From an uncultured Gammaproteobacteria bacterium (lineage in GTDB: Bacteria; Patescibacteriota; Microgenomatia; UBA8517), in assembly GCA_964617045.1 (NCBI GenBank), contig CAZTVZ010000003.1, positions 32,257-96,256 of the forward strand: 64,000 bases of DNA, in the 5' to 3' direction. Shown in pieces: positions 258-55,587 of this stretch. A program made the position numbers and the translations under genes. Numbering within the stretch: the first letter of the stretch is position 1; each line of letters starts with the position of its first letter. Below the pieces are notes generated by a model. That model did no database searches. It worked only from the letters and a program-made list of their open reading frames with translations, and was not told the DNA's origin.

Positions 258-1247
258 TTATCGTAAATATCGATTGATGTTTGCCCCGTGTTCCTCAAGT
301 GTTTTGGCATAATGGATTTCTCCTTTCGGGTCATGCAAATAAAACCAATATTCTGTATTTTGAGCGTTCGCAACGGCTTTCAAAGAAGAAATTCCGGAGC
401 TTGCTATCGCCGAAGGAGGTAATCCAATATTTTTATAACTGTTAAAAGAAGATTTTATCTCCAAGTCTGCTTTAGTTACCGGCTCCCACCATTTACATCC
501 GGAATATTTATTTGCACACCTTAAAGTTCCTGCAGCGTATTGAACCGTGGCGTCAGCCTGTAGCGGCCAATCTGCTTTTAGTCGATTTAAAAGAATACCC
601 GCAACAATAGGTTTTTCGCCTTCACCTAAAGTTTCTCGTTCCAATATTGAAGCGAGTATTACCCCTTCTTCTTTGGTGAGATTGTTTGTTAAAAGACCTT
701 GCTCAATTTCATCAGAATATTTCGATTCGAATATTGACACCATTTTGTTGACAATAGTATTTGCTGTCGCCTCTTTAGGAAAAATGTACGTATCGGGGAA
801 TAGATATCCCTCTTTTCCTTTGGTTAAAGTCATAAATTCCTGGATAAAGGCATCTCTGTCTTCTTTCTCCAGCAAATCGGCAAATTTTTCAGCAACTTCT
901 TCTCTTCTTAGGCCTTCAGGAATAGTAACCCATCGTTCTTCGGGGCCACTCAATAGTTTTGCAACTGTTTTAAGAAGTGAATCGTTCGGGGACAACGTGT
1001 ATTCTCCCGCCTGTATTTTACCTGCAGCTCCGGTTAATTGAATATAAAACTTAAATGCCAAAGAACTTTTTACAAGACCTTTTTCTTCCAACATTGAAGC
1101 AATTTTTGAAGCCGAAGACCCTTTGGTAATCAAAAAGGGAACATTCTTTTCTTCGATATCAACAGGTCCTTTTACGTAATTCCACCACAACAATCCTCCA
1201 CATACAATAATTGCAACGAATAAAAGAGGGATAATAATTTTCTTCAT
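258..1247 (-). CDS. mltG: endolytic murein transglycosylase MltG (YceG-like)
   Basis: 329 aa with an N-terminal TM (IIIPLLFVAIIVCGGLLWW) followed by a YceG-like domain (GEYTLSPNDS, LFPDTYIFPKEAT, LASILERE). It lies in the conserved alaS-ruvX-mltG neighbourhood. Confidence 0.85.
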   Translation of the reverse strand: MKKIIIPLLFVAIIVCGGLLWWNYVKGPVDIEEKNVPFLITKGSSASKIASMLEEKGLVKSSLAFKFYIQLTGAAGKIQAGEYTLSPNDSLLKTVAKLLSGPEERWVTIPEGLRREEVAEKFADLLEKEDRDAFIQEFMTLTKGKEGYLFPDTYIFPKEATANTIVNKMVSIFESKYSDEIEQGLLTNNLTKEEGVILASILERETLGEGEKPIVAGILLNRLKADWPLQADATVQYAAGTLRCANKYSGCKWWEPVTKADLEIKSSFNSYKNIGLPPSAIASSGISSLKAVANAQNTEYWFYLHDPKGEIHYAKTLEEHGANINRYLR

Positions 1248-1256
1248 TAACTTAGC

Positions 1257-1451
1257 TCAAACTTCTTCAAGAAGAGCGCGTCGATATTTGTTGGAGTATT
1301 TAATATAAATACGCCCACAATCACAGGTAACTTTTTCTTTTCCTTCTTTATTTTTGGAAGACTTTCCCAAATGGAGATCTTTTCCGCACCCAACACATCT
1401 ACCCTGCGAAAGTAACCATGCCTGAATTGGTGCAATTACATTTTTAAACAT
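1257..1451 (-). CDS. small zinc-ribbon protein (hypothetical)
   Basis: 64 aa carrying CxxC and CxC pairs (CVGCGK ... CDCG). It sits between ruvX and mltG, where Firmicutes carry a small conserved ORF. The overlapping alternative-frame ORF 1247-1435 is less likely. Confidence 0.4.
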   Translation of the reverse strand: MFKNVIAPIQAWLLSQGRCVGCGKDLHLGKSSKNKEGKEKVTCDCGRIYIKYSNKYRRALLEEV

Positions 1452-1830
1452 TTGTATCTAAGTAGGATTGTAGCATAATTGTTGCAGCAAAAGCATCTTC
1501 CAAAGCTTTTCTTTTTTCCCGACCCATTCCAGCTTCGATTGATTTATCGATGGCTTCCTGAGTAGAAAGTGTCTCGTCCCAAAAATCGACTTCGATAGCT
1601 AATTTGTTCTTAAGAATTTTACCAAAAGCTTCTGAACTTTCGGCGGATTCCCCTTCTGAAACGCCAACGACAATTTTTTCAATACCTTCGTTCTTTACGA
1701 TAAAGGATATTTTTTCTATCGCATCGTTTTCTTCCTGATATCGAATTACTTTATATGGGTCCGCCAAAAAACCCTCAGAAATAGAAACTCCTATTTTACT
1801 GGTTCCATAATCAATTCCTAATATTTTCAT
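1444..1830 (-). CDS. ruvX: Holliday-junction resolvase-like / pre-16S rRNA nuclease RuvX (YqgF)
   Basis: MKILGIDYGTSKIGVSISEG... is the classic YqgF N-terminus. The six-frame ORF extends to 1908, but the conserved start is the internal Met at 1830. Confidence 0.85.
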   Translation of the reverse strand: MKILGIDYGTSKIGVSISEGFLADPYKVIRYQEENDAIEKISFIVKNEGIEKIVVGVSEGESAESSEAFGKILKNKLAIEVDFWDETLSTQEAIDKSIEAGMGREKRKALEDAFAATIMLQSYLDTNV

Positions 1831-1832
1831 CG

Positions 1833-2507
1833 TTATATTCCAGGAGGAACAATTCTTGCCTTTACGATTAATCTTTTTGGCCTTCTTGGATCCCCCGGTG
1901 GGACACATGTTACCAGAGACAAAAAAGAATCGCTACTGTCCTGCTCCAATATTTGGATATCCGTAGGATATACTTCAATAAAACTATCAACCTCATAAAT
2001 AAATTCCACACCATCATAAGAAACAAATATCTCGTCTCCTTTTTTCAAAGAAGGTACTGTTGAAAATATTGAGATGTAATCTTTTGGATTATAAAAAATT
2101 GGTAGAATAGAATGACCGAAAACAACAGCATTTCCCCTTTTCCCCGGCAAGGCTGTTCCGGGATATTGAATTAAATGCTTGGACAAGTCATCTCCCCCAA
2201 TAGCAACCGTTGCGTTTTCAATCTTCAATTTTGGAATACTCAAAGAATAGAAAGTAACATTGGAATTTTGAAAAGAACCGGGAGTTTCTCCTTCAAACCA
2301 GTTGCTTACTTTTGTAAAATCTTGAGGGTTAGATTCCGAAATAGCATTTTCTGTACTTTCGATTACGGGACTTAATAATTTTGAGTATTTGGGACTTACA
2401 CTCCCTTGATATTCGATAATCGGAGCTATTACAATCGTCAGTATCATTACCCCCGCAAACCCGGCAATTCCAGCAATTATTTTTAGCAGAAGCTTTTTTC
2501 GAGACAT
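1833..2507 (-). CDS. sortase (transpeptidase), membrane-anchored
   Basis: 224 aa with an N-terminal TM. Sortase catalytic motifs are present: VVFGHS (His), LSLVTCVPP (TLxTC Cys) and a downstream Arg (PRRPKRLIV). Confidence 0.8.
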   Translation of the reverse strand: MSRKKLLLKIIAGIAGFAGVMILTIVIAPIIEYQGSVSPKYSKLLSPVIESTENAISESNPQDFTKVSNWFEGETPGSFQNSNVTFYSLSIPKLKIENATVAIGGDDLSKHLIQYPGTALPGKRGNAVVFGHSILPIFYNPKDYISIFSTVPSLKKGDEIFVSYDGVEFIYEVDSFIEVYPTDIQILEQDSSDSFLSLVTCVPPGDPRRPKRLIVKARIVPPGI

Positions 2508-2519
2508 CTAACTAGTTAA

Positions 2520-4718
2520 TTATTTTTCGGCGGATAATTCAATATCAATGTTCTTTTCAACGTGGGGTAATCTTTGAATTTTGTCTGGGAACGAAACAGA
2601 AATTCGGATATTCGCGTTTCTGAATCCGGGAATAGTAGAAAAATACTCCGTCGCACTTTGTTTCGTTCTTCCTTTTATCTTTTTTGCCAATTCCTCAGTA
2701 TTTACATCAGGTAAAAGATTTGCCTCCAAAATTGTATCCATTACATATACACCTTCGTCTTCCGAATCAACTTCAAATTTGGCTCCAATTTGTTCGTCTT
2801 TTAGTACATACCCTGAAGGAACTCTTTCTTTCAAAAGCTCTTTTGCAAAATCAAAAAATGTTTTTTTGTCTATGGTTAAGGCAGATGCTTCTACATCCAT
2901 TGTAAGTTTCAATGTTGTTGCCTCATCTCCAACTTTTGCAGAGAAAGTGCTGTTTTTTACATCAACCATAACGCTTCCATCGGCAAGATATTTATCTGAG
3001 GGAAGCTTGTTTTGCAATTTGGTTTTGACTTTATCCGTTAATTCGGACAGCAACTCTTCTTCAAGCGCTTCTTGGTCTTCTTTCGATACAGCGCTAATTT
3101 CCCTACTACTTCCCCCAGTAAAAGCCGAGGTCGAAACCGCTTCCACGTCAGCCTTGGGATAATTACTTACCTTAAACTTTTCGTCCCCTGCTAAATTAAA
3201 CCCGTCTCCGATATCCGATGCAACGACCTCAGCAGTTGCGGATCCCGGTTCTGTTGTCGATACGGCTGCAACAATTGAAACCGCACTTACTATCGAATAT
3301 TTCAGACCTCCGCTTGAAGTGATTGCTGTTCCGGCCGCTAAATTAATATCGTTTTCTGTACCGTTAAGAATCTTTACTGTACCTTTAGCTCTTTCTCCAA
3401 CAAGTTTTGTCCCCGTTGTCGATTTTGTTCTCTCTCCCGTATCTTCTTCTGTAACCAGGTTGCCAGGAATAGTCTTATCCGAAACGCTAACTTTTGAAGA
3501 ATTTGTGTCAATGTCGATCTTAATATTGTCTTCCAATTTTTTCGAAGCAATAATCAGTGTGATGTCTGCTTTGGGAATAAACCACCAGGCTGCAAAAAGG
3601 CCAACAAGAAGTAAAACAAATACTGCTATTCCCGTAATAAATATGTTCTTTGTTGGAGTGAGTTCAACATTCGGAACCCTCACATTCAATTTCTTTGGAA
3701 AAATACCCAAAATTGAATCTTTAATGCTTTTCTTCGGTTCACCATATATCGGGGCTGGAGATTGAACGGTAGGTGGATTATTAACGACAGGGTTGGATAC
3801 CGTCTCCACAGAAGAGCTGACGGGGATATCCCTTTTTTCCGAAATATCTTCGTTTAAAGAAAAACCCAGATCTTCCGGATTAATTGTTTCTTGCGGTACT
3901 TCAACGTTTTCAATTTCTTTTGTTTCCTGTTGATAGTTTTCTATCTCTTCAGATTCCACTTTGGTTACACCACCCATTTCAGAAGCACCTGCCAATGCCG
4001 TTGCCAATACTTTATTTTCCGAGTCGATTATTTCTATCTTTGGTGTGTGTAAAAATTTAATCCGTTCTTCGGATTCCCATGACATTTTAAGCAAGGTTTG
4101 CCTGTCTTCTTCCAGCTCTCCTTCTTTCCCGTCATATAAAATGAATCTCGAAGGTAAATTTTCGGTCGTACCAAATCTGGCTAAACCTTCAACCACGTCA
4201 TCCGAAATTGAAACACTTCTCGCAACTAGTGCATTTCCAACAAGATTCCCCAACCTAAAAACCGAGACCTCAATATTTTCTTCCCCAACGCCAAGCACTA
4301 CAGCATTGAGAGGTGCACCTTCTTGCGATTTTGTTAAATGTGCAATTGCTTCCGGTAATACAACAAACCCTGTTGGTTCAAGGGACAATTCTGTACAAAT
4401 TCGTTTAATTGTTCCCAAATGTTCGGCTTTTATTTCCCCATCGCCCACCCATGAAGGCGGAACTCCAAATACCGTTTTGGATGGTTCCGGTATCTCATCG
4501 GGTAATTTTTGAATTGCAGCAGAAAGCACTGTATCAGCAGCCCCTACAATTTCTTCATTTTCTTTCCATGCTGCAGGAGGACTTACTGATACGACTTTTG
4601 CACTTGTTCCCTCAATAAACCATATGCCTGCCTGAACCCATCCCGGTTCAATGGTTAAAGCCCAGTAGTGTTCTGGGGACGAAGATTTATTTCCCTGTAA
4701 TATGCTTCCTATATCCAT
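2520..4718 (-). CDS. bitopic membrane protein: N-terminal actin-like (FtsA/PilM-type) cytoplasmic domain, one TM, large extracytoplasmic domain
   Basis: 732 aa. The N-terminus has phosphate-1-like (ALTIEPGWVQAGIWFIEG) and phosphate-2-like (NAVVLGVGEENIEVSVFRLG) motifs of the actin/FtsA/PilM fold. A TM lies at about residues 355-378 (IFITGIAVFVLLLVGLFAAWWFI), followed by a ~350-aa Ser/Thr/Val-rich ectodomain. It ends 12 nt upstream of the sortase gene. Confidence 0.45.
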   Translation of the reverse strand: MDIGSILQGNKSSSPEHYWALTIEPGWVQAGIWFIEGTSAKVVSVSPPAAWKENEEIVGAADTVLSAAIQKLPDEIPEPSKTVFGVPPSWVGDGEIKAEHLGTIKRICTELSLEPTGFVVLPEAIAHLTKSQEGAPLNAVVLGVGEENIEVSVFRLGNLVGNALVARSVSISDDVVEGLARFGTTENLPSRFILYDGKEGELEEDRQTLLKMSWESEERIKFLHTPKIEIIDSENKVLATALAGASEMGGVTKVESEEIENYQQETKEIENVEVPQETINPEDLGFSLNEDISEKRDIPVSSSVETVSNPVVNNPPTVQSPAPIYGEPKKSIKDSILGIFPKKLNVRVPNVELTPTKNIFITGIAVFVLLLVGLFAAWWFIPKADITLIIASKKLEDNIKIDIDTNSSKVSVSDKTIPGNLVTEEDTGERTKSTTGTKLVGERAKGTVKILNGTENDINLAAGTAITSSGGLKYSIVSAVSIVAAVSTTEPGSATAEVVASDIGDGFNLAGDEKFKVSNYPKADVEAVSTSAFTGGSSREISAVSKEDQEALEEELLSELTDKVKTKLQNKLPSDKYLADGSVMVDVKNSTFSAKVGDEATTLKLTMDVEASALTIDKKTFFDFAKELLKERVPSGYVLKDEQIGAKFEVDSEDEGVYVMDTILEANLLPDVNTEELAKKIKGRTKQSATEYFSTIPGFRNANIRISVSFPDKIQRLPHVEKNIDIELSAEK

Positions 4719-4725
4719 GAATAAT

Positions 4726-6555
4726 TTACTCGGGTCTGTTTGTTGCGTAAATTCGGATTACACCCGAGCCAACCTTTTCCTGTTTTATTATTCTAACATG
4801 ACCAATTTCTCCGGTGTTGTCGACATGAGGTCCACCACACACTTCTTTAGAAAACGGATCTGTGGGATTAACTGTATACACTTTTACTACTTCTCCGTAT
4901 TTTTCTGCAAAAAAATGCAGTGCTCCTTCTTTAACGGCATCGCTAATTTTTTTATTCTCGCAAGAGACCTCATACTTCTTGTCAATCACGAAATTTATTA
5001 TCTTTTCAATTTCTTTCACTTGTTCCTCAGACAATTTTTGAGTGTGAGAAAAATCAAACCTTAATCTTTCAGCGGTAATGTTTGAGCCTTTTTGGGATAC
5101 ATGATCTCCCAATACTTTTCTTAAAGCCGCATGCAATAAATGTGTCGCTGTATGTAATTTAACAACGTTTTCGGAGTTTTCAGCCAAACCACCCTTAAAC
5201 ATGCCGGCAGAAGCAGTTCGCGATAATTCCTTGTGTTTTTCAAATTCCTCTTCGAAAGACGCTTTGTCTCCATCGCTCAGTTCTTTTCCTTCCTTTTCCA
5301 AAATCTCCAATGTCAGCTCAAGAGGGAAGCCTTCGGTTTGATATAAGTCGAAAGCCATTTTCCCATCAATAACTTTGTCTTTGTTCAGAGCATTCTTGAG
5401 TTTAATTGTTCCCCTTGTAAGCGCATTTTCAAACTTATGAGCTTCTTCAGAAAGAATGTCTGCCACTGTTTTTTCGTCGACAATTTCTTTGACATAGGTT
5501 GAGCGTAAAGCTTTAACAATATCAAAAGCAAAATTTCCAAACACGACTGGCTTAAGGTTTTTCAGATAAAAAACGGCTCTTCTTATCAATCTCCTTAAAA
5601 CATAGCCCTGTAATTTATTGCTGGGATAAGTTCCTTCGGAAATAATCGCAACCGCTGCTCTCATATGATCCGCAATAATTCTGAAGTTTTTGTCTTTTGA
5701 TTCGTCTTCTCCGTAATTGACTTTCGTTAATCCTTCTATTTCCTTAATTACGGGATTGTATATATCGGTTTTAAAAACATCCGGACTCCCCTGCAAAACA
5801 GCTACCGTTCTCTCCAGTCCTCCGCCAAAATCGACATTTTTTTGAGGAAGAGGTGATAAACTCCCGTCACTGTTTTTCTGATACTCCATAAAAACCGAGT
5901 TTCCAATTTCCATAAATCTGCCGCAATCACAATTCGGATGGCATCCTTCGTGCACCGGACTGCCAAAGTCATAGAATATCTCCGAATCCGGTCCTCCAAT
6001 TTCTCCCGCAGGCATATTTTCGGGAACCCCGGATCTGCTCCACCAATTCTTTTTTGCTCCATAATAATGTATTTTTTCATCAGGCAGGCCCAGAGATTTC
6101 CATATTTCATACGATTCGATATCTTTGGGAACCAAATCGTCTCCTTCAAATACCGAAACATGAAGCTTATCTTTCGGTATACCCAATTCTTTGGTAAAAA
6201 AATCCCAAATCCAGGGCAGTTGTTGTTCTTTAAAATAATCTCCCAACGACCAATTACCCAACATTTCGAAAAAAGTTGTATGCCTGTTGTCTCCAACCTC
6301 TTCTATGTCTTGAAGTCTTAAAGAAGGTTGAGTATCGACAAGCCTTTTCCCCTTTGAATGAATCTCGCCTTTTAGATAAGGAATTAACTGTTGCATTCCA
6401 GAAGAGGTAAACAGTGTTGTTGGATCTCCTTCCAAAACCAGAGGGGAAGGTTCAATCTTTTCGTGTTCTTTCGACTGAAAATAATTAAGATACTTTTCGC
6501 GTACTTCACTTGCAAGCATGGCTAAATTATATCTTCTTGGAAGCGCACTATCCAC
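4726..6555 (-). CDS. alaS: alanine--tRNA ligase, short form lacking the C-terminal C-Ala domain
   Basis: LFTSSGMQQ is the AlaRS class II motif. The HTATHLLHAAL editing-domain HxxxH motif is present. The protein is 609 aa, against about 870 in typical bacteria. The likely true start is the Met at 6519 (MLASEVREKYLNYF). Confidence 0.9.
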   Translation of the reverse strand: MDSALPRRYNLAMLASEVREKYLNYFQSKEHEKIEPSPLVLEGDPTTLFTSSGMQQLIPYLKGEIHSKGKRLVDTQPSLRLQDIEEVGDNRHTTFFEMLGNWSLGDYFKEQQLPWIWDFFTKELGIPKDKLHVSVFEGDDLVPKDIESYEIWKSLGLPDEKIHYYGAKKNWWSRSGVPENMPAGEIGGPDSEIFYDFGSPVHEGCHPNCDCGRFMEIGNSVFMEYQKNSDGSLSPLPQKNVDFGGGLERTVAVLQGSPDVFKTDIYNPVIKEIEGLTKVNYGEDESKDKNFRIIADHMRAAVAIISEGTYPSNKLQGYVLRRLIRRAVFYLKNLKPVVFGNFAFDIVKALRSTYVKEIVDEKTVADILSEEAHKFENALTRGTIKLKNALNKDKVIDGKMAFDLYQTEGFPLELTLEILEKEGKELSDGDKASFEEEFEKHKELSRTASAGMFKGGLAENSENVVKLHTATHLLHAALRKVLGDHVSQKGSNITAERLRFDFSHTQKLSEEQVKEIEKIINFVIDKKYEVSCENKKISDAVKEGALHFFAEKYGEVVKVYTVNPTDPFSKEVCGGPHVDNTGEIGHVRIIKQEKVGSGVIRIYATNRPE

Positions 6556-6562
6556 AAGGAGG

Positions 6563-6805
6563 TTATATTTGGGTCTCTCCGTGAGATTCCAGTTTCTTGG
6601 TTTTTTTAAGAATTTCGATTATTCCTGTTAGTTTTTCCGGTCTAATTAATCCTCCGCCCAATATCGCATCCTCCAAAATACTATTCAACCTTTTTATGGC
6701 TTTTCTCAAATCAATAATAATAAGCATTACCTGAATTCCCACAATAACTAATAAAGAAGTTAGAGAGATAACCACTACTACAAGTAATTTTTGTACACCA
6801 TCCAT
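6563..6805 (-). CDS. small membrane protein (hypothetical)
   Basis: 80 aa with a single strongly hydrophobic segment (LLVVVVISLTSLLVIVGIQVMLIII). Confidence 0.35.
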   Translation of the reverse strand: MDGVQKLLVVVVISLTSLLVIVGIQVMLIIIDLRKAIKRLNSILEDAILGGGLIRPEKLTGIIEILKKTKKLESHGETQI

Positions 6806-7428
6806 TAAAGTTCAGGATTAATATTACGACGAATCACCGTCTCTTTACCAGCCCTTGATTTGGCAATTACTACAATTTCTTTTGTGTCCGAGACAATATT
6901 TATTTGAAGTGCAAAATTACCTTCTTCATCAACCAGCACGGGTTGATTGTTTACAATAACGGTTGCATCTTTTTCGGTTTTTCCTAGTACTGTCAATTTT
7001 CTTTCATAAACGGTTTGTCCTTCTGAGGGTTCGATAAGAGAAAGTTCTGGAGGGTTAATATACTTAGCATATTGAACTGATAAATATATAATTGTCGATA
7101 TTATTACCAACGCAATTCCTGTTATAAAAGTAATCTTGGGATTAATGGAGAATTTTTTCTCCACATCAGGTTTGGGATTAATGAATAATTTTTTTGGAGG
7201 ATAGTCTCTTCGTAAAAGCGCAAGTGCGGCGTTTTTATCACACCCTAAAAAATCCGCATAATTTTTTACAAAACCCGATACGACTGGAAATTCCGGCAGC
7301 TTATTCCACTCCTCTTTTTCAAGTGCTTCAATAAATTCTTTCTTTATTTTTATCGCACTTTCAATTCTGCCTAGGGAAAGATCCTTTGACATTCGGGCGG
7401 TTTTTAGAACATATCCGACAGTTTTCAT
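6805..7428 (-). CDS. RodZ-like cytoskeleton protein (HTH-XRE + TM + extracytoplasmic domain)
   Basis: The N-terminal HTH matches RodZ (GYVLKTARMSKDLSLGRIESAIKIKKEFIEALE ... VSGFVKNYADFLGCD). A single TM (ITFITGIALVIISTIIYL) is followed by a C-terminal beta-rich domain. Confidence 0.55.
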   Translation of the reverse strand: MKTVGYVLKTARMSKDLSLGRIESAIKIKKEFIEALEKEEWNKLPEFPVVSGFVKNYADFLGCDKNAALALLRRDYPPKKLFINPKPDVEKKFSINPKITFITGIALVIISTIIYLSVQYAKYINPPELSLIEPSEGQTVYERKLTVLGKTEKDATVIVNNQPVLVDEEGNFALQINIVSDTKEIVVIAKSRAGKETVIRRNINPEL

Positions 7429-7433
7429 TTAAA

Positions 7434-9554
7434 TTATTGTTGAGGTTCTTTTGGCTGTGAGGCAGAAGCTAAAAATTCCTCGGCGTTTTGAATCAGCACT
7501 TCTCTTGGCTTGGATCCTTCGGCAGGCCCGACTACTCCGGCGGCTTCAAGTTGGTCGATTACCCTTGCCGCTCTTGCATAACCGATTGACAATCTTCTTT
7601 GTAATAATGAAGCAGAAGCTCTGTCGTATTGACATACTTCTCTAACCGCATCCGTAAATAATGGATCAGCGTCCCCTTCCAGTCCAGCAATTGGTGCATG
7701 ACCAGACTTTGTCATGGCGGTTACTTCTTCCGAGTATTGAGGTTCAACTCCTTGGTTTCTTATATAGGAAACAAGCGAATTGGTTTCCTTGTCCGAAATA
7801 AACGCTCCCTGAATTCTCATTGGTTTAGCCTGCTCCGGAGGAAGGAATAACATGTCTCCCCTGCCCAATAATTTTTCCGCTCCCTGTGTATCCAAAATTA
7901 CCCTTGAATCAACTTGCGAAGATACTGCAAAAGCAATACGACAAGGAATATTCGCTTTGATAAGACCTGTAATAACATCGACCGATGGCCTTTGTGTTGC
8001 GAGAACCATATGTATACCCGTTGCACGAGCCATTTGGGCAATTCTGGTTATTGAATCTTCAACCTCAACCGGAGAAAAAAGCATAATATCAGCAAGTTCA
8101 TCGATGAAAAGAACAATGTATGGTAAAGCCTGGAAACCGGACAGTTCGTTGTAAGTATCTATATTCCTTGCTCCTGCTTGTGCAAATAATTTATATCTTC
8201 TATCCATTTCCGAAAGAATCCACCTAAGTGCCGAAACAACCTTTTCCGGTTCTACAATAACAGGGGTAAGAAGATGCGGAATATTATTATAATTGGTCAA
8301 TTCAACTCTCTTTGGATCAACCAAGATTAATTTGATTTCGGAAGGAGATGCTCTAAAAAGAAGCGATGAAAGGAAGGCGTTCACACAAACCGATTTACCC
8401 GAGCCTGTTTGTCCAGCAATTAAAACGTGAGGCATTTTCCCAATATCCGCAACGATTGGCTTACCTGAAACATCAAGCCCCAAAGAAACAGCGAGTTTGG
8501 ATCTGGTTGCGTGCATTGCTTCCGACTCCATCATTTTTCTTATCGGAACAAATTCCGGAGATTTATTGGGAAGTTCAATTCCCACCAAACTTCTTCCGGG
8601 AATAGGAGCCTCTATTCTTATCGTTCCTGTCGGAGCCGCAAGAGCAAGGGCAAGGTCTCTCTCCAAAGCGGTTATTTTTGAAAGCTTTGTCCCTAAACCT
8701 ACTTCCAATGCGTATTGGGTAACCGCAGGTCCCAAATTGACCTCGACAACTCTGGCCGTAATTCCAAACGATTCAAGCGTCTTTTCAATTATTGCCGCGT
8801 TGTCTCTAATATCTCCTCTGTCAGCCTTCCCAAGTTCGCTATTACTTAATAAGTCGAGATTCGGATATCTCCAAACTTTATCTTCACCCGGGACATTGGA
8901 AACCAATTTTTGTTCCAAAGGCTCTTTACTAACCGGTACTGTTTCCTTTTTGTTTGCAGGATTAACAATATTAAAAGATGGCGAACTTCCTCCCGACACC
9001 TTCATCGTTCCTTTTCCGAATCCTTTTGCAACAACTCCCTGAGTTTTATCCCCTACAATATATTTTTTGCCTTCTTTGAAAAGCATTATCAAAAATTGAA
9101 CAACTTGATCTACGGACGTGTTGAACATAATAACCAATCCAACAAGTGTTGTTCCCAATAAAACGATAAAAGCACCCGGGGCGGTTATTAAAGTTGCCGT
9201 TCCTCCCCATGCTTCACTACCGAGCACCCCACTTCTCCCTAAGGTTGCAATAGAAATAAAAAATAAAATGCTTCCTATGACAACGTTTGGTTGACCTAGG
9301 GGGTTTTTAACTTTGGAAACAAGAAGAGCACAAGTAAGAAAAATAAAAGGAAGAAAGAGTGTTGACCAAGCAAACATTCTCCAAAGAAAATCATTAATTT
9401 CGATTAGAATCGATCCTCTTCTGGAAAACGAAATCAAAACCAGGGCAGCAAGGGAAAAGAAAATTACCTGAACAATCGAATACGTTGTCCCCTTTTTTAA
9501 TTTGAGATTAAAAGCTCTCTTTGTTGTTTTTGCTCTTCTTAATTTTCTTCCCAT
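7434..9554 (-). CDS. ftsK: DNA translocase FtsK/SpoIIIE
   Basis: Shows N-terminal TM segments, the Walker A motif GQTGSGKSVCVN, the FtsK alpha/beta motor, and a C-terminal gamma winged-helix (LFTDAVREV...LLQRRLSIGYARAARVIDQLE). Confidence 0.9.
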   Translation of the reverse strand: MGRKLRRAKTTKRAFNLKLKKGTTYSIVQVIFFSLAALVLISFSRRGSILIEINDFLWRMFAWSTLFLPFIFLTCALLVSKVKNPLGQPNVVIGSILFFISIATLGRSGVLGSEAWGGTATLITAPGAFIVLLGTTLVGLVIMFNTSVDQVVQFLIMLFKEGKKYIVGDKTQGVVAKGFGKGTMKVSGGSSPSFNIVNPANKKETVPVSKEPLEQKLVSNVPGEDKVWRYPNLDLLSNSELGKADRGDIRDNAAIIEKTLESFGITARVVEVNLGPAVTQYALEVGLGTKLSKITALERDLALALAAPTGTIRIEAPIPGRSLVGIELPNKSPEFVPIRKMMESEAMHATRSKLAVSLGLDVSGKPIVADIGKMPHVLIAGQTGSGKSVCVNAFLSSLLFRASPSEIKLILVDPKRVELTNYNNIPHLLTPVIVEPEKVVSALRWILSEMDRRYKLFAQAGARNIDTYNELSGFQALPYIVLFIDELADIMLFSPVEVEDSITRIAQMARATGIHMVLATQRPSVDVITGLIKANIPCRIAFAVSSQVDSRVILDTQGAEKLLGRGDMLFLPPEQAKPMRIQGAFISDKETNSLVSYIRNQGVEPQYSEEVTAMTKSGHAPIAGLEGDADPLFTDAVREVCQYDRASASLLQRRLSIGYARAARVIDQLEAAGVVGPAEGSKPREVLIQNAEEFLASASQPKEPQQ

Positions 9555-23038: not shown

Positions 23039-23088
23039 TTAGCACTAATTTAGCAAGAGTGATAGCACTTGTCAAGAGGGAGTGCTAT
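23039..23088 (-). promoter_or_regulatory. hrcA-operon promoter (TTGACA-17-TAAATT) flanked by two CIRCE-like inverted repeats
   Basis: On the minus strand the -35 is at 23070-23075, overlapping the murJ stop, and the -10 at 23047-23052. CIRCE-like element 1 is ATAGCACTC-N9-AAGTGCTAT (23062-23088). Element 2 is CTATCACTC-N9-TAGTGCTAA (23039-23065). Both are compared with the consensus TTAGCACTC-N9-GAGTGCTAA. The ATG lies about 14 nt after the -10. Confidence 0.65.
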
Positions 23089-24799
23089 CCGTTGGAGAAG
23101 GTGTCAGTGTTTCGGTTTCTCTTTCTGGAATTGCTCCGACTTTTTTCTTGGCAATTCTTTTTAATAAACTTGCGAAATATATTAGTTCTCTCGACTTGAG
23201 AAGCATCGAAATACCAACATAAATTACCCCCCCCACCAAAATAACCATTATCGTAAGTATCAACAAATTGACCGTATATCTTGTGTCAAGAACAAATTTC
23301 TCGAAAGGTATCTGATTGCTCGCATCAATCTTGTTCATAAAAGACAACTGCTTAATCCAGACCGATCGATCGAAAAACTTTAGAAAAAAATACATTGTAA
23401 AACCGGATACTAACGAAGCAAAGAAAGATTTAGCAAAAGGAATAAATGTTCTTATCCCCTCTCCGTCTCCAATTTTCTTTTCCAAAAGAACAAACAATGT
23501 AATGGTTTGCAGAGAAGCGGCAAAAGAAAACGCCGCAGCCAATGCCCATACGGGTAATCCAAAATATTTAATCAAAATTAAATCCAAAATAATATTGATA
23601 GAAAGGGTAATCAGAGATACCGCAACGGGAGTCCTTGTATCGTGAAGGGCATAAAAACTTCTCGCTAAAACAGAGTTCGCGGCTTGGAAAAATACCCCAA
23701 AAGCAAAAGCAGACACAACCATTCCCGTTTGAACGGTCGATTCCCAACTGAAAATATCGGTGCCGAAAATAAGTCTTACAATCGGAATTCTTAAAACAAT
23801 GAGGACCGTAGCGATCGGCATTATTAAGAACGCTATTTGATACAGTGCACCAAAAAGCGTTCTTTTAAATTGGGTTCTGTCATCCGACTGCCTGGCCAAC
23901 GTAGGAAGAGCAGCTTTTGCGATCGATGTTCCAAATAAACCCACCGGAAGAAGTTGCACTGTATTCCCAAACGTAAAGAATGTATAAGAAGCAGTCGAAA
24001 TAATCGATGCTAAAGAGAGCTCGACCGATTTGGCAATCTGCAAAAATGACACCTCGATTATTCTGGGGAGTGCAAGCTTGCCGATCTTTTTAACATCTTC
24101 CGTAATTCTAATAATCGGTTTTATTCTGAATCCAAGTTTAATCGCGAGGGGAAGTTGAACGGCAAAATGGCAAAATGCTCCGAAGGCAACACCGATTGTC
24201 GGACCCATCAGTCCCATTGTCGGTGATAATACAACTGTTCCTAGTATTATCCCCAGGTTGTAAAAAAGTGGGGCTATAGCCGGAACAATAAATCTTCTTG
24301 AAGATTCCAAAACCGCGGTAAGAACATAACTTATTACAAAAAATCCTTGTGCGGCAAACAATATTCTGGTTAAAGATACTATTGTGTCACGGTCTGCTCC
24401 GGTAAAGCCTGGGGCAAGAATTCCATACAAATGTCCGGAGAAAAACGCGATTACCAACGCCATGACCACAAAAATAATCAATCCGATATTGGCAATTGTT
24501 CCCGCGATTTCCCAAGCATCTTTAGATCCTTTTTTTAAAGATTTGGTAAAAACAGGGATAAAAGCAGAAGCAAAAGTACCGAATACCAAAACCTCAAAAA
24601 TTAAATCGGGTAATCTAAAGGCTGCGAAAAAGAGAGATAGCTCGTTTGGTTCGAAAAAGTGCGCCAGAGCTCTTTGTCTGACAAGTCCAAGCACCCTTGA
24701 GGCAATCGTCATAAACATAATGATCGTTGCCGCGGAAAGGACAGAGCTTTGAGGGGAAGAAAATATCTTTTTCCCTTTGTTGATAATGTCGTTCACCAT
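23072..24799 (-). CDS. murJ: lipid II flippase MurJ (MviN)
   Basis: 575 aa and polytopic. The N-terminal sequence SAATIIMFMTIASRVLGLVRQRALAHFF...AFRLPDLIFEVLVFG is the MurJ signature. Confidence 0.85.
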   Translation of the reverse strand: MVNDIINKGKKIFSSPQSSVLSAATIIMFMTIASRVLGLVRQRALAHFFEPNELSLFFAAFRLPDLIFEVLVFGTFASAFIPVFTKSLKKGSKDAWEIAGTIANIGLIIFVVMALVIAFFSGHLYGILAPGFTGADRDTIVSLTRILFAAQGFFVISYVLTAVLESSRRFIVPAIAPLFYNLGIILGTVVLSPTMGLMGPTIGVAFGAFCHFAVQLPLAIKLGFRIKPIIRITEDVKKIGKLALPRIIEVSFLQIAKSVELSLASIISTASYTFFTFGNTVQLLPVGLFGTSIAKAALPTLARQSDDRTQFKRTLFGALYQIAFLIMPIATVLIVLRIPIVRLIFGTDIFSWESTVQTGMVVSAFAFGVFFQAANSVLARSFYALHDTRTPVAVSLITLSINIILDLILIKYFGLPVWALAAAFSFAASLQTITLFVLLEKKIGDGEGIRTFIPFAKSFFASLVSGFTMYFFLKFFDRSVWIKQLSFMNKIDASNQIPFEKFVLDTRYTVNLLILTIMVILVGGVIYVGISMLLKSRELIYFASLLKRIAKKKVGAIPERETETLTPSPTDSTPS

Positions 24800-24835: not shown

Positions 24836-25126
24836 ATGCCTGTAACGAAAACAGCCAAAAGAGCCCTTCGTGGTTCCAAACAAAAATTGTCAATCAACAC
24901 TTCCATAAGAGCATCGCTGGAAGCGGCTATTCGTATCGCCAAAAAATCAAAAACCGCAGAAAAAGTAAGAGCGGCAGTAAAACTTGCAGACAGAGCAGCC
25001 AAGAAAAACACAATTCACAAAAATAAAGCATCGAGAATAAAAAGCATGCTTTCGAAATTGGCTCCGACAACAAAATCGGCAGAAAAAAAGACAGTCGCAA
25101 AGAAAACAACCAAGGCTAAAAAATAA
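24836..25126 (+). CDS. rpsT: 30S ribosomal protein S20
   Basis: MPVTKTAKRALRGSKQKLSINTSIRASLEAAIRIAKKS... is Lys/Ala-rich and about 96 aa. The six-frame ORF begins 29 codons upstream, inside murJ. Confidence 0.85.
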   Translation: MPVTKTAKRALRGSKQKLSINTSIRASLEAAIRIAKKSKTAEKVRAAVKLADRAAKKNTIHKNKASRIKSMLSKLAPTTKSAEKKTVAKKTTKAKK

Positions 25127-25188
25127 ACTTCTTCAAGCCATTTTCATATGATATAGTGGGTTTAGACGCCTAGAGCGTTTATGTTGCT

Positions 25189-25752
25189 ATGGCTGCCCAA
25201 AAAGGCTCAAAACTGATAAATCTTCTACCGCAAGAGGAATTTGCCAATTCCACAATTGGTCGTGTGTTTACGTGGGCAATGAGTACCTTCAGAATTATCG
25301 TTATTGGTATGGAGATGGTCGTCATGGTTGCTTTTCTTTCTCGTTTCTGGTTGGATGCCAGAAATGTTGATTTAAACGACATAATCAAACAAAGATCGGC
25401 TGTGATTGCCGCCCAATCCGATTTTGAAAAAGAATTTAGAGATCTTCAAAAAAGAGTTAAGGTTTTTTCCGGAATAACCGGTGTGGAAAAACTTCCTTCC
25501 GAACAAATTACAATTATTACTTCTTATATACCAAACGATGTCCGACTTGAGGCAATTAACCAGTCGGGTGAAAATTTTCAAATCAGAGGAAATTCTTTTA
25601 ACGAAATATCTATAAGCCAATTTATTGTTAACCTTGAAAAAAGCGGAAATTATGACAAGGTTCAGGTTTCAACACTCGATTCGGATCAAGAAGAGGGCGG
25701 ACTGTTTACATTTACTTTGAGTTTATCCCCCAAGAAAGGAGCATCTAAATAA
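25189..25752 (+). CDS. pilN: PilN-like type IV pilus assembly protein
   Basis: The conserved N-terminal INLLP motif (KLINLLPQEEF) is followed by a single TM and a periplasmic-type domain. Length is 187 aa. Confidence 0.6.
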   Translation: MAAQKGSKLINLLPQEEFANSTIGRVFTWAMSTFRIIVIGMEMVVMVAFLSRFWLDARNVDLNDIIKQRSAVIAAQSDFEKEFRDLQKRVKVFSGITGVEKLPSEQITIITSYIPNDVRLEAINQSGENFQIRGNSFNEISISQFIVNLEKSGNYDKVQVSTLDSDQEEGGLFTFTLSLSPKKGASK

Positions 25753-26406
25753 ATGGCACTCGGCTGGAGAAAAGATTACCTAAGATATCGTGAGCAATTT
25801 CTTAACGTTGTAAAACTTTACCAAAAAAGACAGGACTTAAGAATCTATCTTGAAGTAATTTTGTCTTTACTGACAATTATCTTTTTTGCTTTCTTTGCCT
25901 TAAGACCAACCATTCTGACAATATCTCAACTCTACAAAGACATTCAGGCAAAGGAGGAAGTTGTGCAAAAACTGGAAGAAAAAATAAACAATCTCGAATT
26001 GGCACAAGAATTGGTTGCCGAAAAACAAACAGTAATCGAAATTGCCCGACTGTCTGTTCCTGGCGAACCAACACCGGAAAGTTTTGCCAGACAAATTGAA
26101 GGACTATCACAAACAACAGGTATTACTCTATCGGGAATCTCGGTTGGAGAAGTAACAATACTCGGTGAAGCAAGAAAAACCGCTCAGGATAAAGATTTAA
26201 AACCTCTGCCCGAAGGCTCAATGGGAATGCCATTTACGATCAGTATATCGGGAGAATACGGAAATCTGTTTAATTTCCTCAGAAATTTGGAAAACCTGAG
26301 AAGGCCTGCTTCTATTGATAATATTTCCATTTCATCAACGATAAACGATGAGGGTATTGTAAAAATAACAATGATCGTATCGGGAAGGGTACCTTTTCTC
26401 AAATGA
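25753..26406 (+). CDS. pilO: PilO-like type IV pilus assembly protein
   Basis: Starts 1 nt after pilN. It has an N-terminal TM, a coiled-coil (QAKEEVVQKLEEKINNLELAQELVAEKQ), and a C-terminal ferredoxin-like region. Length is 217 aa. Confidence 0.5.
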   Translation: MALGWRKDYLRYREQFLNVVKLYQKRQDLRIYLEVILSLLTIIFFAFFALRPTILTISQLYKDIQAKEEVVQKLEEKINNLELAQELVAEKQTVIEIARLSVPGEPTPESFARQIEGLSQTTGITLSGISVGEVTILGEARKTAQDKDLKPLPEGSMGMPFTISISGEYGNLFNFLRNLENLRRPASIDNISISSTINDEGIVKITMIVSGRVPFLK

Positions 26407-26744
26407 AAAAATTTAAACCGCCAAGCTTTATCACAATATTAATTCTTACTGCAATTACCGTTGTCTTCTGGATATTTTTTGGTGTCGTAAGAATATTTAC
26501 AAAAGCCGATGAGGAAACTGTACCTGCAGCAATTCTTGCACCGCTATCCCCAACACTTGACAAGGATGTTCTGGATAAACTTCCTTCAAGGGTATATTTT
26601 GATGATAGTCAGATTTCAACAAATGTTGTTAGTTCACCCACACCGACGCCTTCAATCCAAATTCCCACTCCGACAGAAATTCTCGAAGCAACAGAGTCTG
26701 CAACACCAACGGCAACAGAAGGAGCAGTTATAGATGAAGAATAA
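26403..26744 (+). CDS. small bitopic membrane protein with acidic Thr/Pro-rich ectodomain (hypothetical)
   Basis: 113 aa. A TM (FITILILTAITVVFWIFFGVV) is followed by PTPTPSIQIPTPTE. It overlaps pilO by 4 nt and the next gene by 11 nt. Confidence 0.4.
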   Translation: MKKFKPPSFITILILTAITVVFWIFFGVVRIFTKADEETVPAAILAPLSPTLDKDVLDKLPSRVYFDDSQISTNVVSSPTPTPSIQIPTPTEILEATESATPTATEGAVIDEE

Positions 26745-28092
26745 GATTCCAACATTGATTGGTTTAGTAGTTCTTATATTTGGTTTAGCCGCCGGTGTTT
26801 TCCTTGTGCAAAACACAACAATTTTCAGATTGGGAGCTTCAGGAGAAAATGCACCTGAAAATGTAAGAATAACCAATATCTCGGATGTATCATTTACAGT
26901 CAGTTGGACAACATCAAAAGAAACCACGGGATTTATCAAATACGGAGAATCCGACAACTTGGGTAAAACCAAAAATGACGAACTTTCCGAAAAAGGATAT
27001 ACACATTACGCGACGATAAGCGGAGTAAAATCCGAATCTAATTACTATTTCAAAATAAATTCGGAGGGAGTCGATTATGACAACAATGGTGTTCCTTGGG
27101 AATTGACTACTGGACCCAATATACCCACAAACACCAGCCAAACGACCATCTCCGGAACGATACTCGAACAAACAGGTAATCCATCAAAAAATGCAATTGT
27201 ATACGTGACCATTGCAGGAAGCTCCCCTCTCTCGTCAACAACGTCTCAAAACGGATCATGGGTAATTCCGCTAAATTTTGCCAGAACACAGGACTTGTCT
27301 GCGTTTATCTTGATACAAGAATCTTCATCATTACTTGAAATATCCGTTAATGCTGGACCGAAAGGAATTGCTTCCGCACAAATATTTCCTCAATCGGCGA
27401 AACCGGTTCCTGCAATTACTCTTGGAACAACAAACGATTTTAGAAGCAACCCCCCGAGCTCTGTCGACGGAATACCTCAAGCTAACTTAACTATTCCAGA
27501 AATAACAGAGAAGAAATCCGGTTTTAATGTTGATGCCACAGTGGCGTCAAACGATAATAAAACGGTTACTTTAGAAAGCGTTGCAGACGGAGAAAAAATT
27601 TCAAGTGAAAAGCCCGAATTTTTCGGAAGTGGACCTTCTGGTACAACTATTACCATTACTGTTGAAAGCGATCCTCAAAGCGGTGAGGTAAAAGTCAACA
27701 ATTCCGGTGATTGGAATTGGACACCACCGGCAGGATTAGAACCCGGAACTCACACCGTTACAATTACATGGCGTGATGCTGCGGGGATATTAAGAAAACT
27801 TACAAGATCTTTTGTTGTTGAGGCATCAGAAAATCCATCTTTTACCGCGACCCCTTCTGCAACAACAACGGTAACACCAACTGCAACAAAAACACCTACA
27901 CCATCTTTAACACCAACTTCTTCGCCAACACCAACAGCATCTGTTTCAGCAACAAAAACACCTACACCATCTGCAGCACCTACAACACCCGAATCGGGCA
28001 GCTTGACCCCAACAATAATTCTATTTATGATGGGTATAGCGATCATTTTGTTCGCAACTGTTGCTTGGAAGAAATCTGAAATAAATGCCTGA
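26734..28092 (+). CDS. cell-surface protein: N-terminal TM anchor, FN3-like + Ig-like domains, Thr/Pro-rich linker, C-terminal sorting-signal-like TM tail
   Basis: Shows an FN3/purple-acid-phosphatase-N-like motif (VSFTVSWTT...TGFIKYGES...HYATISGVKSESNYYFKI). A long Thr/Pro linker (TATPSATTTVTPTATKTPTPSLTPTSSPTPTASVSATKTPTPS) is followed by TPESGSLTPTIILFMMGIAIILFATVAWKKSEINA. Confidence 0.6.
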   Translation: MKNKIPTLIGLVVLIFGLAAGVFLVQNTTIFRLGASGENAPENVRITNISDVSFTVSWTTSKETTGFIKYGESDNLGKTKNDELSEKGYTHYATISGVKSESNYYFKINSEGVDYDNNGVPWELTTGPNIPTNTSQTTISGTILEQTGNPSKNAIVYVTIAGSSPLSSTTSQNGSWVIPLNFARTQDLSAFILIQESSSLLEISVNAGPKGIASAQIFPQSAKPVPAITLGTTNDFRSNPPSSVDGIPQANLTIPEITEKKSGFNVDATVASNDNKTVTLESVADGEKISSEKPEFFGSGPSGTTITITVESDPQSGEVKVNNSGDWNWTPPAGLEPGTHTVTITWRDAAGILRKLTRSFVVEASENPSFTATPSATTTVTPTATKTPTPSLTPTSSPTPTASVSATKTPTPSAAPTTPESGSLTPTIILFMMGIAIILFATVAWKKSEINA

Positions 28093-29590: not shown

Positions 29591-29592
29591 TT

Positions 29593-30144
29593 ATGAAAAA
29601 TAAAGCCGTATCAATAATAATTTTGGTAATAACTTTACTTTTGGCGGGAGTTGCGATATTCACCGCTGTCAGATTGTACCAACTTAGACAAGAGTCTGTG
29701 GCTCCAACTGCACCAGAAAGTGAACCTGCTGCTGCTGCACCCGAATCATGTAGCTCGCTCTCCTTTACGATTGGTGAACCAACCGGAACACCGACAAACA
29801 CAATTACAACTACGCCAATTGTTAAAGATTGTGCACAGTCGTGTGCAGCCAGTAGTGAATGTAAATCCGGACTTATTTGTTCCAACGGATCATGCAGAAA
29901 TCCTTCTTGTACATCCGAAACAGATTGTGTCTGTCCAACAGCAACAACCACAACAACTTCAACACCTACCGCGACATCGACTGTAACCTCAACAGTAACG
30001 ACAACTGCAACTTCGACATCGACTGTAACCTCAACAATTACGCCAACGGCAACTCTACCAGATGCAGGCATTCCTGCTCCGACAGTATTCGGAATTAGTT
30101 TCGGTGTCCTACTCCTTATTATTGCCGTTGCTCTCGCGCTTTAA
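29593..30144 (+). CDS. small Cys-rich surface protein with Thr-rich linker and LPDAG + C-terminal TM sorting-signal-like tail
   Basis: Has a signal-anchor (MKNKAVSIIILVITLLLAGVAIFTAV) and an 8-Cys module (CAQSCAASSECKSGLICSNGSCRNPSCTSETDCVC). A poly-Thr linker is followed by TLPDAGIPAPTVFGISFGVLLLIIAVALAL. An alternative start at 29578 is possible. Confidence 0.5.
   Translation: MKNKAVSIIILVITLLLAGVAIFTAVRLYQLRQESVAPTAPESEPAAAAPESCSSLSFTIGEPTGTPTNTITTTPIVKDCAQSCAASSECKSGLICSNGSCRNPSCTSETDCVCPTATTTTTSTPTATSTVTSTVTTTATSTSTVTSTITPTATLPDAGIPAPTVFGISFGVLLLIIAVALAL
29930..30060 (+). repeat. low-complexity Thr/Ser codon repeat (linker-coding), including a direct 21-nt repeat acatcgactgtaacctcaaca x2
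   Basis: ACN/TCN-rich. Similar linker-coding tracts occur at about 27850-27990 and about 30740-30900. Confidence 0.7.
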
Positions 30145-30192
30145 TTGTTGATAAAATTTTTTCATAGGGCAAAATGTATTAAGGCTTAATCT

Positions 30193-30981: not shown

Positions 30982-31008
30982 ACCTCGTCAAATTATGATT
31001 TCTGTAAT

Positions 31009-55530: not shown

Positions 55531-55587
55531 AATGTTGATAGAGATTTAGCTCAATTCTACAATATAAATGTTATCATACAGACATAC

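Follow-up and report, generated by a model that had tools for sequence, protein, structure and literature searches.

X732, a conserved membrane protein of Woesebacteria and Daviesbacteria with an actin-like domain and a predicted Baseplate_J-like ectodomain, is encoded beside a sortase

Introduction

The closest described counterparts of the protein considered here are GspL/EpsL from type II secretion systems (T2SS) and the BfpC-type PilM-like proteins of type IVb pili, which are bitopic with an N-in/C-out orientation, a single transmembrane (TM) helix, and an actin-like fold. In GspL/EpsL the actin-like cytoplasmic domain does not bind nucleotide and acts as a docking scaffold. X732 is the working name for a 732 amino acid (aa) open reading frame (ORF) at positions 2520-4718 (-) of a 64,000 nucleotide (nt) stretch of contig CAZTVZ010000003.1 (assembly GCA_964617045.1), hereafter the window, in which it lies directly upstream of a sortase gene. 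X732 has the same layout of one TM helix after an ASKHA (actin-like) domain with degenerate motifs, in a predicted topology.

X732 differs from GspL in several respects. It matched no GspL Pfam model, GspL was absent from the 50 Foldseek matches listed, and no inserted SHS2/1C-like domain is present. The GspL ectodomain is small and ferredoxin-like, whereas that of X732 is a predicted 350-aa Baseplate_J module, and GspL partners with GspE and GspM while the partner gene of X732 codes for a sortase and no T2SS genes occur in its neighborhood. An initial annotation made from the sequence alone had called the union of an actin-like domain, a TM helix, and an ectodomain rare; rare it is, but GspL/EpsL-type proteins provide a precedent. 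Whereas bitopic scaffolds with a nucleotide-free actin fold are known, the Baseplate_J ectodomain and the sortase partnership are new here.

Further points of reference include PilM (PF11104/COG4972; structures 5EOY, 5EOX, and 5EOU), a soluble protein of ~350 aa with subdomains 1C and 2B that binds ATP and the INLLP motif of PilN and is encoded beside pilN/pilO. In solved PilM structures (e.g., 5EOU) the PilN peptide sits between subdomains 1A and 1C. The division protein FtsA has the actin-like fold in common with X732, the phage wedge proteins P2 gpJ, Mu gp47, and T4 gp6 and the type VI secretion system (T6SS) protein TssF (PF04865) have the fold of its ectodomain, and housekeeping Gram-positive sortases such as SrtA have a membrane anchor and an intact H-C-R triad in common with the window sortase. 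We know of no characterized sortase with an obligate actin-fold/baseplate-like membrane neighbor.

The candidate phyla radiation (CPR) or Patescibacteria represents a large share of bacterial diversity, and the building of its envelope and surface structures is almost unknown. According to Méheust et al. (PMC6744442), a sortase is near-ubiquitous among Microgenomates and has a patchy distribution in the remaining CPR groups. One Microgenomates-group genome was reported to have a canonical pilM in its type IV pilus (T4P) locus (PMC7143001), and most Patescibacteria phyla contain pilM homologues (PMC11623550). No account of X732 was found in the literature on Patescibacteria/Woesebacteria baseplate J (PF04865), sortase, or PilM, and the protein carries existing annotation only as "hypothetical" or "baseplate J/gp47 family."

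Results and Discussion

The X732 family and its domain architecture

Homology searches returned 776 homologues of X732 and, among the 120 listed, identity was 45-54% with nearly all proteins full length, which supports the ORF as a real gene. Named homologues were from metagenome-assembled genomes (MAGs) of Candidatus Woesebacteria, Microgenomates, or Patescibacteria, a few being annotated as "baseplate J/gp47 family protein." A profile of the N-terminal domain (N-domain) against 1.84 billion representative proteins retrieved 1,418 clusters (50% identity) at E <= 1e-3 and 676 at E <= 1e-30. Family members were examined for the best 150 of the 1,418 clusters, where the domain was N-terminal in 150/150, most proteins were 670-820 aa, and the shorter ones look like fragments. 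A divergent Daviesbacteria clade (~30% identity to the window X732) displayed an unchanged architecture, such that together with the Woesebacteria members the family is conserved in at least two Microgenomates classes. When a mixed Woesebacteria and Daviesbacteria alignment was searched against metagenomes, the best 80 loci were all close Woesebacteria relatives.

Segments of X732 were delimited from 56 aligned members together with an AlphaFold2 model of the full-length protein, which had a mean predicted local distance difference test score (pLDDT) of 83, with folded domains >90. The model begins with a short N-terminal peptide (aa 1-14) of low confidence and partly conserved start (consensus MDLKxFLS), followed by:

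3948..4676 (-): aa 15-257, minimal ASKHA/actin-like domain (AlphaFold2 and Foldseek)
3660..3947 (-): aa 258-353, disordered acidic Pro-rich linker (pLDDT <50)
3843..3878 (-): aa 281-292, motif (P)EDLGFxxGEDV within the linker (alignment)
3579..3656 (-): aa 355-380, single TM helix ending in a WWFxPKA motif (AlphaFold2 helix and alignment)
2523..3569 (-): aa 384-732, ectodomain, predicted complete Baseplate_J module (Pfam and Foldseek)

This agreed with the initial annotation in the single TM helix (aa 355-380 in the AlphaFold2 model) and the ~350-aa ectodomain. Its assignment of the N-terminal ~300 aa to the actin/FtsA/PilM fold was supported for the fold itself by AlphaFold2 and Foldseek and not for its extent, the domain covering aa ~15-257 and not ~300-330 residues. 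An N-in/C-out topology with a cytoplasmic N-domain is predicted, since ASKHA folds are cytoplasmic and a signal peptide is absent.

The N-domain was the most conserved segment (mean pairwise identity 0.64), followed by the ectodomain (0.54), the TM helix (0.38), and the linker (0.30), although the motif within the linker reached 0.64. In this motif G285 and F286 were invariant in the 56 Woesebacteria sequences; with Daviesbacteria added, F286 was still invariant and G285 nearly so, the motif persisting there as GFVxGD[IV]. EDLGFxxGEDV looks like a candidate partner-binding short linear motif, and the high conservation of the N-domain together with the motif fits protein-protein interaction. 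A terminator-like hairpin (3881-3863) overlaps the coding region of the EDLGF motif and is probably incidental.

A degenerate actin-like N-domain

Modeled alone, the N-domain gave an AlphaFold2 pLDDT of 89.5 and a predicted TM-score (pTM) of 0.86 and consisted of two uninterrupted RNase-H-like beta-beta-beta-alpha-beta-alpha-beta-alpha halves of ~245 residues in total. The best Foldseek matches in the PDB were Pseudomonas aeruginosa PilM (5eoy/5eox/5eq6/5eou; E 2.9e-9 to 1e-7, with 5eoy at 2.9e-9; TMq 0.57-0.61, where TMq is the TM-score normalized to the query), followed by PPX/GppA, FtsA (TMq 0.44-0.58), HgdC/BcrAD-type activators, ROK, and YeaZ. The matches identify an ASKHA/actin-like fold whose closest solved structures are PilM and FtsA, as the initial annotation had supposed. 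The secondary structure contained the 1A and 2A core halves and left no room for 1C (SHS2) or 2B subdomains. By sequence, the N-domain belonged to no known family in Pfam, NCBIfam, or PHROGs, 0/56 family members had a PilM, FtsA, or GspL Pfam match (E <= 0.01), and phmmer and profile searches against PDB sequences returned no PilM and only chance gp41 matches.

The phosphate-1 and phosphate-2 motifs that the initial annotation had reported turned out to be degenerate remnants (IEPG and LGVGEEN) and not canonical. Positions of the phosphate loops were mapped by motif order, with hhalign used solely as a consistency check; it placed LGVGEEN on DLGGGT of the nucleotide-binding domain of the DnaK encoded in the window in a non-significant alignment (probability 0.4%). 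The phosphate-1 position reads IEPG in Woesebacteria and LNIG in Daviesbacteria versus the canonical DxG, with the acid at this site being E24 in the former and N in the latter. At the phosphate-2 position LGVGEEN, VIAAREEN, or VLEVGSEN were found instead of DxGGGT, the Gly-rich loop being absent and the position variable, and the connect-1 Glu was not invariant between the two classes. Residues invariant in both classes were W33, F84-G85, W90, K97, E99, R167, P189-S190, W214, FLHxPK (222-227), and AGAxE (243-247), which look structural or interface-forming and not catalytic. Given phosphate motifs that have decayed and differ between the two classes, the N-domain is probably a non-catalytic actin-fold scaffold.

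A Baseplate_J-like module outside the membrane

Pfam Baseplate_J (PF04865) matched 55/56 family members (E <= 0.01; best E 1.2e-7), with the window X732 scoring 19.8 bits, just below the gathering score of 21.1, and several homologues have a precomputed PF04865 match. Foldseek aligned essentially the whole ectodomain (~310-360 columns) with solved wedge proteins at probability 1.0 and E ~1e-6 (7kh1_A5, 8kea_b, 9euf_I, 8v3w_0, and 9ki1_O), these matches originating from phage XM1, cyanophage A-1(L), phi812, diffocin, and Mu; many further matches were to "Baseplate J like" models in BFVD (E 1e-8 to 1e-6). By profile and model comparison the ectodomain is thus predicted to be a complete wedge module like P2 gpJ, Mu gp47, and T4 gp6. 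In contrast to the wedge proteins, the X732 module follows a TM helix that joins it to a cytoplasmic domain and is encoded by a core chromosomal gene without tail genes.

The relationship to phages is remote, given that a tblastn search with the ectodomain found no match among 50,697 phage genomes; PHROGs likewise contained no match to X732. Genes for gp25/W, gpI/TssG, hub, tube, sheath, or spike proteins were found in neither the window nor the 148 related loci, and the base composition was uniform with the X732 locus matching its flanks. A prophage origin of the locus was ruled out by this uniform composition and the lack of phage genes, and X732 is a cellular protein bearing a baseplate-wedge-like module outside the membrane and not a prophage gene.

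A POTRA or FtsQ Pfam match was found in neither the window X732 nor the 56 members. Unlike FtsQ/DivIB, the ectodomain has no POTRA and FtsQ beta-domain and its Foldseek matches are wedge proteins; the initial annotation had allowed that it might be a common POTRA/FtsQ domain, a case that does not apply to a module that is Baseplate_J-like by both hidden Markov model (HMM) and Foldseek. An FtsA-FtsQ fusion was ruled out on the same ground. An "NYPK" in the ectodomain was rejected as a pilin-motif lysine, as this residue is replaced by Q, R, or S in part of the Woesebacteria and is missing in Daviesbacteria.

A conserved pairing with sortase

The X732 gene lies in a minus-strand block with the order alaS, X732, sortase, ruvX, a 64-aa ORF, and mltG:

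4726-6555 (-): alaS, short ~600-aa form, directly upstream of X732 (NCBIfam PRK01584, 681 bits)
2520..4718 (-): X732, bitopic membrane protein (ORF)
1833..2507 (-): sortase, 224 aa, N-terminal membrane anchor (Pfam Sortase, 77 bits)
1444..1830 (-): ruvX, YqgF-type (Pfam RuvX, 103 bits; match from aa 27 of a longer ORF)
1257-1451 (-): 64-aa protein with CxxC…CxC (zinc-ribbon-like), between ruvX and mltG
258..1247 (-): mltG (YceG), end of the conserved block (Pfam YceG, 247 bits; TIGR00247, 212 bits)

Junctions read directly comprised the alaS stop, 7 nt, and the X732 ATG; the X732 stop TAA, 12 nt, and the sortase ATG; and the sortase stop, 2 nt, and the ruvX ATG. This bore out the gene order and the 12-nt spacing of the initial annotation, and no terminator-like sites were found between the alaS, X732, sortase, and ruvX genes. 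The ATG at 1830 is taken as the start of ruvX because the longer ORF matches Pfam only from aa 27 onward. For alaS, the listed ORF starts with GTG and its Pfam match begins at aa 17, such that the true start may be an internal ATG (MLASEV…); its best NCBIfam model, PRK01584, has 595 positions. The 64-aa CxxC protein was kept in nearly all Woesebacteria loci and was not at that position in the Daviesbacteria loci L067 and L068. In Firmicutes an unrelated small gene lies between ruvX and mltG.

The sortase scored 77 bits against a Pfam cut-off of 26.6, had a visible N-terminal hydrophobic segment as membrane anchor, and displayed the motifs FGHS, TC.PPG, and RL.V.A of the H-C-R triad, which were >=95% conserved in 118 distinct orthologues. 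It fell under every class-specific NCBIfam cut-off, the highest scores being those for class C (46 bits; cut-off 160), SrtD (44; 140), and class E (39; 160), and in contrast to SrtA-type enzymes it fits no NCBIfam class.

Synteny was evaluated in 148 related loci, drawn from 64 GTDB species genomes, 80 metagenome contigs, and 4 look-ups; in 130 of them the downstream sequence sufficed to judge the position of the sortase. The sortase directly followed X732 in 127 of these 130 and lay downstream in all of them, in accordance with a pairing conserved across relatives. In the remaining three the sortase followed after an insertion, and the two insertions read were both unrelated large ORFs: a 1,440-aa coiled-coil-rich ORF in L035 (8207-12529) and a 597-aa ORF on the opposite strand in L066 (2625-4418). 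These may be mobile or selfish, and as unrelated large ORFs they were rejected as functional clues.

The gene alaS was directly upstream of X732 in 114/118 loci, ruvX was within 2 kb in 118/122, and mltG was within 3 kb in 98/109. In Daviesbacteria (~30% identical) the order X-sortase-ruvX-mltG was intact even where alaS was inverted. Since the order is kept across Woesebacteria and Daviesbacteria, the apparent "insertion" of X732 and sortase is ancient and stable and not local to this genome as had been supposed. The distribution of X732 matches that reported for sortase in Microgenomates (PMC6744442), which fits a lineage-wide partnership.

Candidate sortase substrates and the PilN/PilO cluster

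C-terminal sorting signals, defined as xPx[ST/A]G followed by a C-terminal hydrophobic helix, were sought in 0.95 Mb comprising the window and 0.9 Mb of related loci. Three proteins were identified in the window and none in the 0.9 Mb of related loci, the three being encoded directly downstream of PilN/PilO:

25189-25752 (+): PilN (Pfam PilN, E 4.5e-10), N-terminus ...KLINLLPQ...
25753-26406 (+): PilO-like gene (Pfam PilO, E 3.4e-5)
26734-28092 (+): predicted substrate, 452 aa, Ig/fn3, ending TPESG-SLTPT-hydrophobic helix-KK
29578-30144 (+): predicted substrate, 188 aa, LPDAG and TM helix
30193-30981 (+): predicted substrate, 262 aa, IPDSG and TM helix

Orthologues of the substrates in two other Woesebacteria end in IPETG, QPVSG, or TPEAG followed by a TM helix, and the xPx[ST/A]G-CTERM proteins at 26.7-31 kb are likely sortase substrates. 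Compared with LPXTG substrates, the candidates including orthologues end in IPETG, TPESG, LPDAG, or IPDSG and a hydrophobic helix, and two of the three window tails differ from SrtA-type signals in having no basic tail. These are the proteins at 29578-30144 (…AVALAL) and 30193-30981 (…SLVLVL), whose termination in the hydrophobic helix is atypical for LPXTG-type signals. X732 was rejected as a substrate, having no C-terminal sorting signal and a C-terminus that is a well-folded strand.

No PilM gene accompanied PilN/PilO in the window or in the Woesebacteria loci L149 and L150, where the cluster follows rpsT and lacks X732. This conserved Woesebacteria cluster (window 24840-31000 (+); L149 8560-14034; L150 8680-13154) consists of rpsT, PilN, and the PilO-like gene and then genes for a ~110-aa TM protein, an Ig/fn3 surface protein, a ~450-500-aa Cys-rich protein, and small Thr-rich proteins.

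A possible role of X732 and its alternatives

The reading tentatively favored here, held with somewhat less than even confidence, is that X732 is a GspL-like non-enzymatic bitopic scaffold that positions or regulates the sortase for surface-protein anchoring. X732 would act as a transmembrane coupler resembling GspL/EpsL or a PilM-PilN fusion in topology, with the actin-fold domain and the linker motif binding a cytoplasmic partner or each other. The ectodomain would self-assemble at the membrane's outer face as an oligomeric platform in the manner of wedge proteins, this platform would position or regulate the sortase, and the sortase would anchor xPx[S/T/A]G-CTERM proteins (e.g., the Ig-like and Cys-rich proteins at 26.7-31 kb) to nascent peptidoglycan. 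The intact sortase beside X732, the short spacers (12 and 2 nt) without terminators, and the substrate-like C-termini are consistent with such a role.

Several observations weigh against the sortase-scaffold role. The adjacency of X732 and sortase could be mere co-expression in a housekeeping operon with alaS, ruvX, and mltG, and if many sortase-containing CPR lineages lack X732 the sortase does not need it. Oligomerization of the ectodomain is suggested by analogy with phage wedge proteins, against which the Foldseek root-mean-square deviation was 25-35 Å; this indicates a sub-domain arrangement different from that of phage baseplates, which also accounts for the low global TM-scores. The charge bias around the TM helix of X732 is weak, and X732 itself has no sorting signal and is hence not a substrate.

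If X732 does scaffold the sortase, we know of no earlier sortase partner of its type. A core envelope protein would then have taken up a module from phage baseplates, and an actin fold without nucleotide would once more, independently, have been put to use for coupling across the membrane, as it is in GspL. The strong constraint on X732 in Woesebacteria and Daviesbacteria points to unknown CPR envelope biology, and testable targets include the linker motif EDLGF, the N-domain surface formed by FLHxPK/AGASE, the proposed oligomer of the ectodomain, and the substrates ending in IPETG, TPESG, or LPDAG.

An unlikely though credible alternative is that X732 is an FtsA-like or RodZ-like scaffold of envelope growth or division and the sortase is merely co-transcribed; the actin-fold domain would then dock FtsZ, FtsA, or MreB while the ectodomain reads or organizes peptidoglycan synthesis with MltG. 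FtsA (TMq 0.55-0.58) is one of the best structural matches, the conserved neighborhood contains FtsK, a RodZ-like helix-turn-helix (HTH)-TM protein, and MltG with MurJ nearby, and the X-sortase-ruvX-mltG order persists in Daviesbacteria. However, many bacteria keep alaS, ruvX, and mltG linked as a general housekeeping arrangement, which is therefore weak functional evidence. In addition, FtsA (TM-scores 0.44-0.58) differs from X732, which has neither the 1C (SHS2) subdomain, the C-terminal amphipathic helix, nor an FtsA Pfam match and possesses a true TM helix and a large ectodomain that is not POTRA/FtsQ-like. The tightest and most constant neighbor of X732 is moreover the sortase.

A role for X732 as the PilM-equivalent of the orphan PilN/PilO, binding the INLLP N-terminus of PilN in a T4P or sortase-hybrid machine, is less probable still. 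PilM is the best structural match, including the PilM:PilN(1-12) complex 5eou, and PilN retains INLLP without an adjacent PilM in the window, L149, and L150. The association is also reciprocal, with PilN/PilO beside sortase substrates and the PilM-like X732 beside the sortase. Nevertheless, X732 is a 245-aa core without insertions and hence without 1C, which forms half of the PilN-binding groove in PilM. It has degenerate P-loops in place of intact loops, no PilM HMM match, and no 2B subdomain, and it is anchored by its own TM helix and extended by an ectodomain where PilM is soluble. The X732 and PilN/PilO loci are not adjacent, lying 20 kb apart and being joined only by general synteny, and canonical pilM reported from T4P loci would supply the partner (PMC7143001, PMC11623550). 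The evidence against the PilM partnership is stronger than that for it, and the proposal in the initial annotation that X732 is the PilM partner of the PilN/O genes at 25.2 kb found no direct support given the missing 1C and the 20 kb distance.

Similarly doubtful is a single Microgenomates surface-assembly machine formed by X732, sortase, PilN/PilO, and the adjacent Ig-like and Cys-rich xPx[ST/A]G-CTERM proteins. It would combine a PilM/N/O-like alignment complex, a baseplate-wedge-derived extracellular ring, and anchoring or polymerization by sortase and, if true, would build an attachment appendage or a wall-anchored layer for episymbiosis.

It is very unlikely that X732 is a phage baseplate protein that was domesticated and acts at the surface without the sortase, for instance as an adhesin, the base of an attachment organelle, a phage decoy, or a blocker of receptors. 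Homology to Baseplate_J extends along the whole ectodomain and CPR bacteria are episymbionts relying on surface contact (PMC6744442, PMC11623550), but other genes of phages, tailocins, or a T6SS are missing from the neighborhood, no phage genome searched shows similarity at the BLAST level, PHROGs give no match, the base composition is like that of the flanks, and the highly conserved cytoplasmic actin-fold domain is left unexplained. Just as improbable is an N-domain that works as a nucleotide-dependent ASKHA enzyme or switch signaling across the membrane (a kinase, a PPX/GppA-like phosphatase, or an ATP-gated polymer), as despite strong Foldseek matches to PPX/GppA, ROK, and HgdC-type enzymes, recognizable connect-1 (PEAIAH) and connect-2 (LAGASE) motifs, and E24 and E150 being invariant within Woesebacteria, the phosphate-2 Gly-rich loop is absent and variable, Daviesbacteria do not conserve E24 and E123, and no enzyme-family HMM matched.

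Genomic context and further envelope genes

The genes of the whole first 9.5 kb of the window are on the minus strand and, in the order of transcription, FtsK, the RodZ-like gene, an 80-aa TM gene, and alaS lie upstream of X732. The 80-aa TM protein and the RodZ-like protein between FtsK and alaS were kept in Woesebacteria loci.

7434-9554 (-): FtsK (Pfam/NCBIfam)
6805-7428 (-): RodZ-like protein with HTH_25, TM helix, and Glucodextran_B/Ig domain (Pfam/NCBIfam)
6563-6805 (-): 80-aa single-TM protein (no Pfam match)

Additional envelope genes occur elsewhere in the window:

23072-24799: MurJ
33020-34045: LytR_cpsA_psr ligase
35926-36927: FemAB-family peptidyl-transferase
55486-57351: VanW/PG_binding_4/G5 protein

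The FemAB-family gene suggests a peptide cross-bridge in the peptidoglycan, which is the usual sortase acceptor, and together with MltG and MurJ nearby it fits the classical lipid-II-linked anchoring route. Finally, many GTDB species-representative MAGs with this Woesebacteria-type locus (L009, L010, L015, L016, and others) are titled "uncultured Gammaproteobacteria bacterium," which looks like a mislabel by the submitter.

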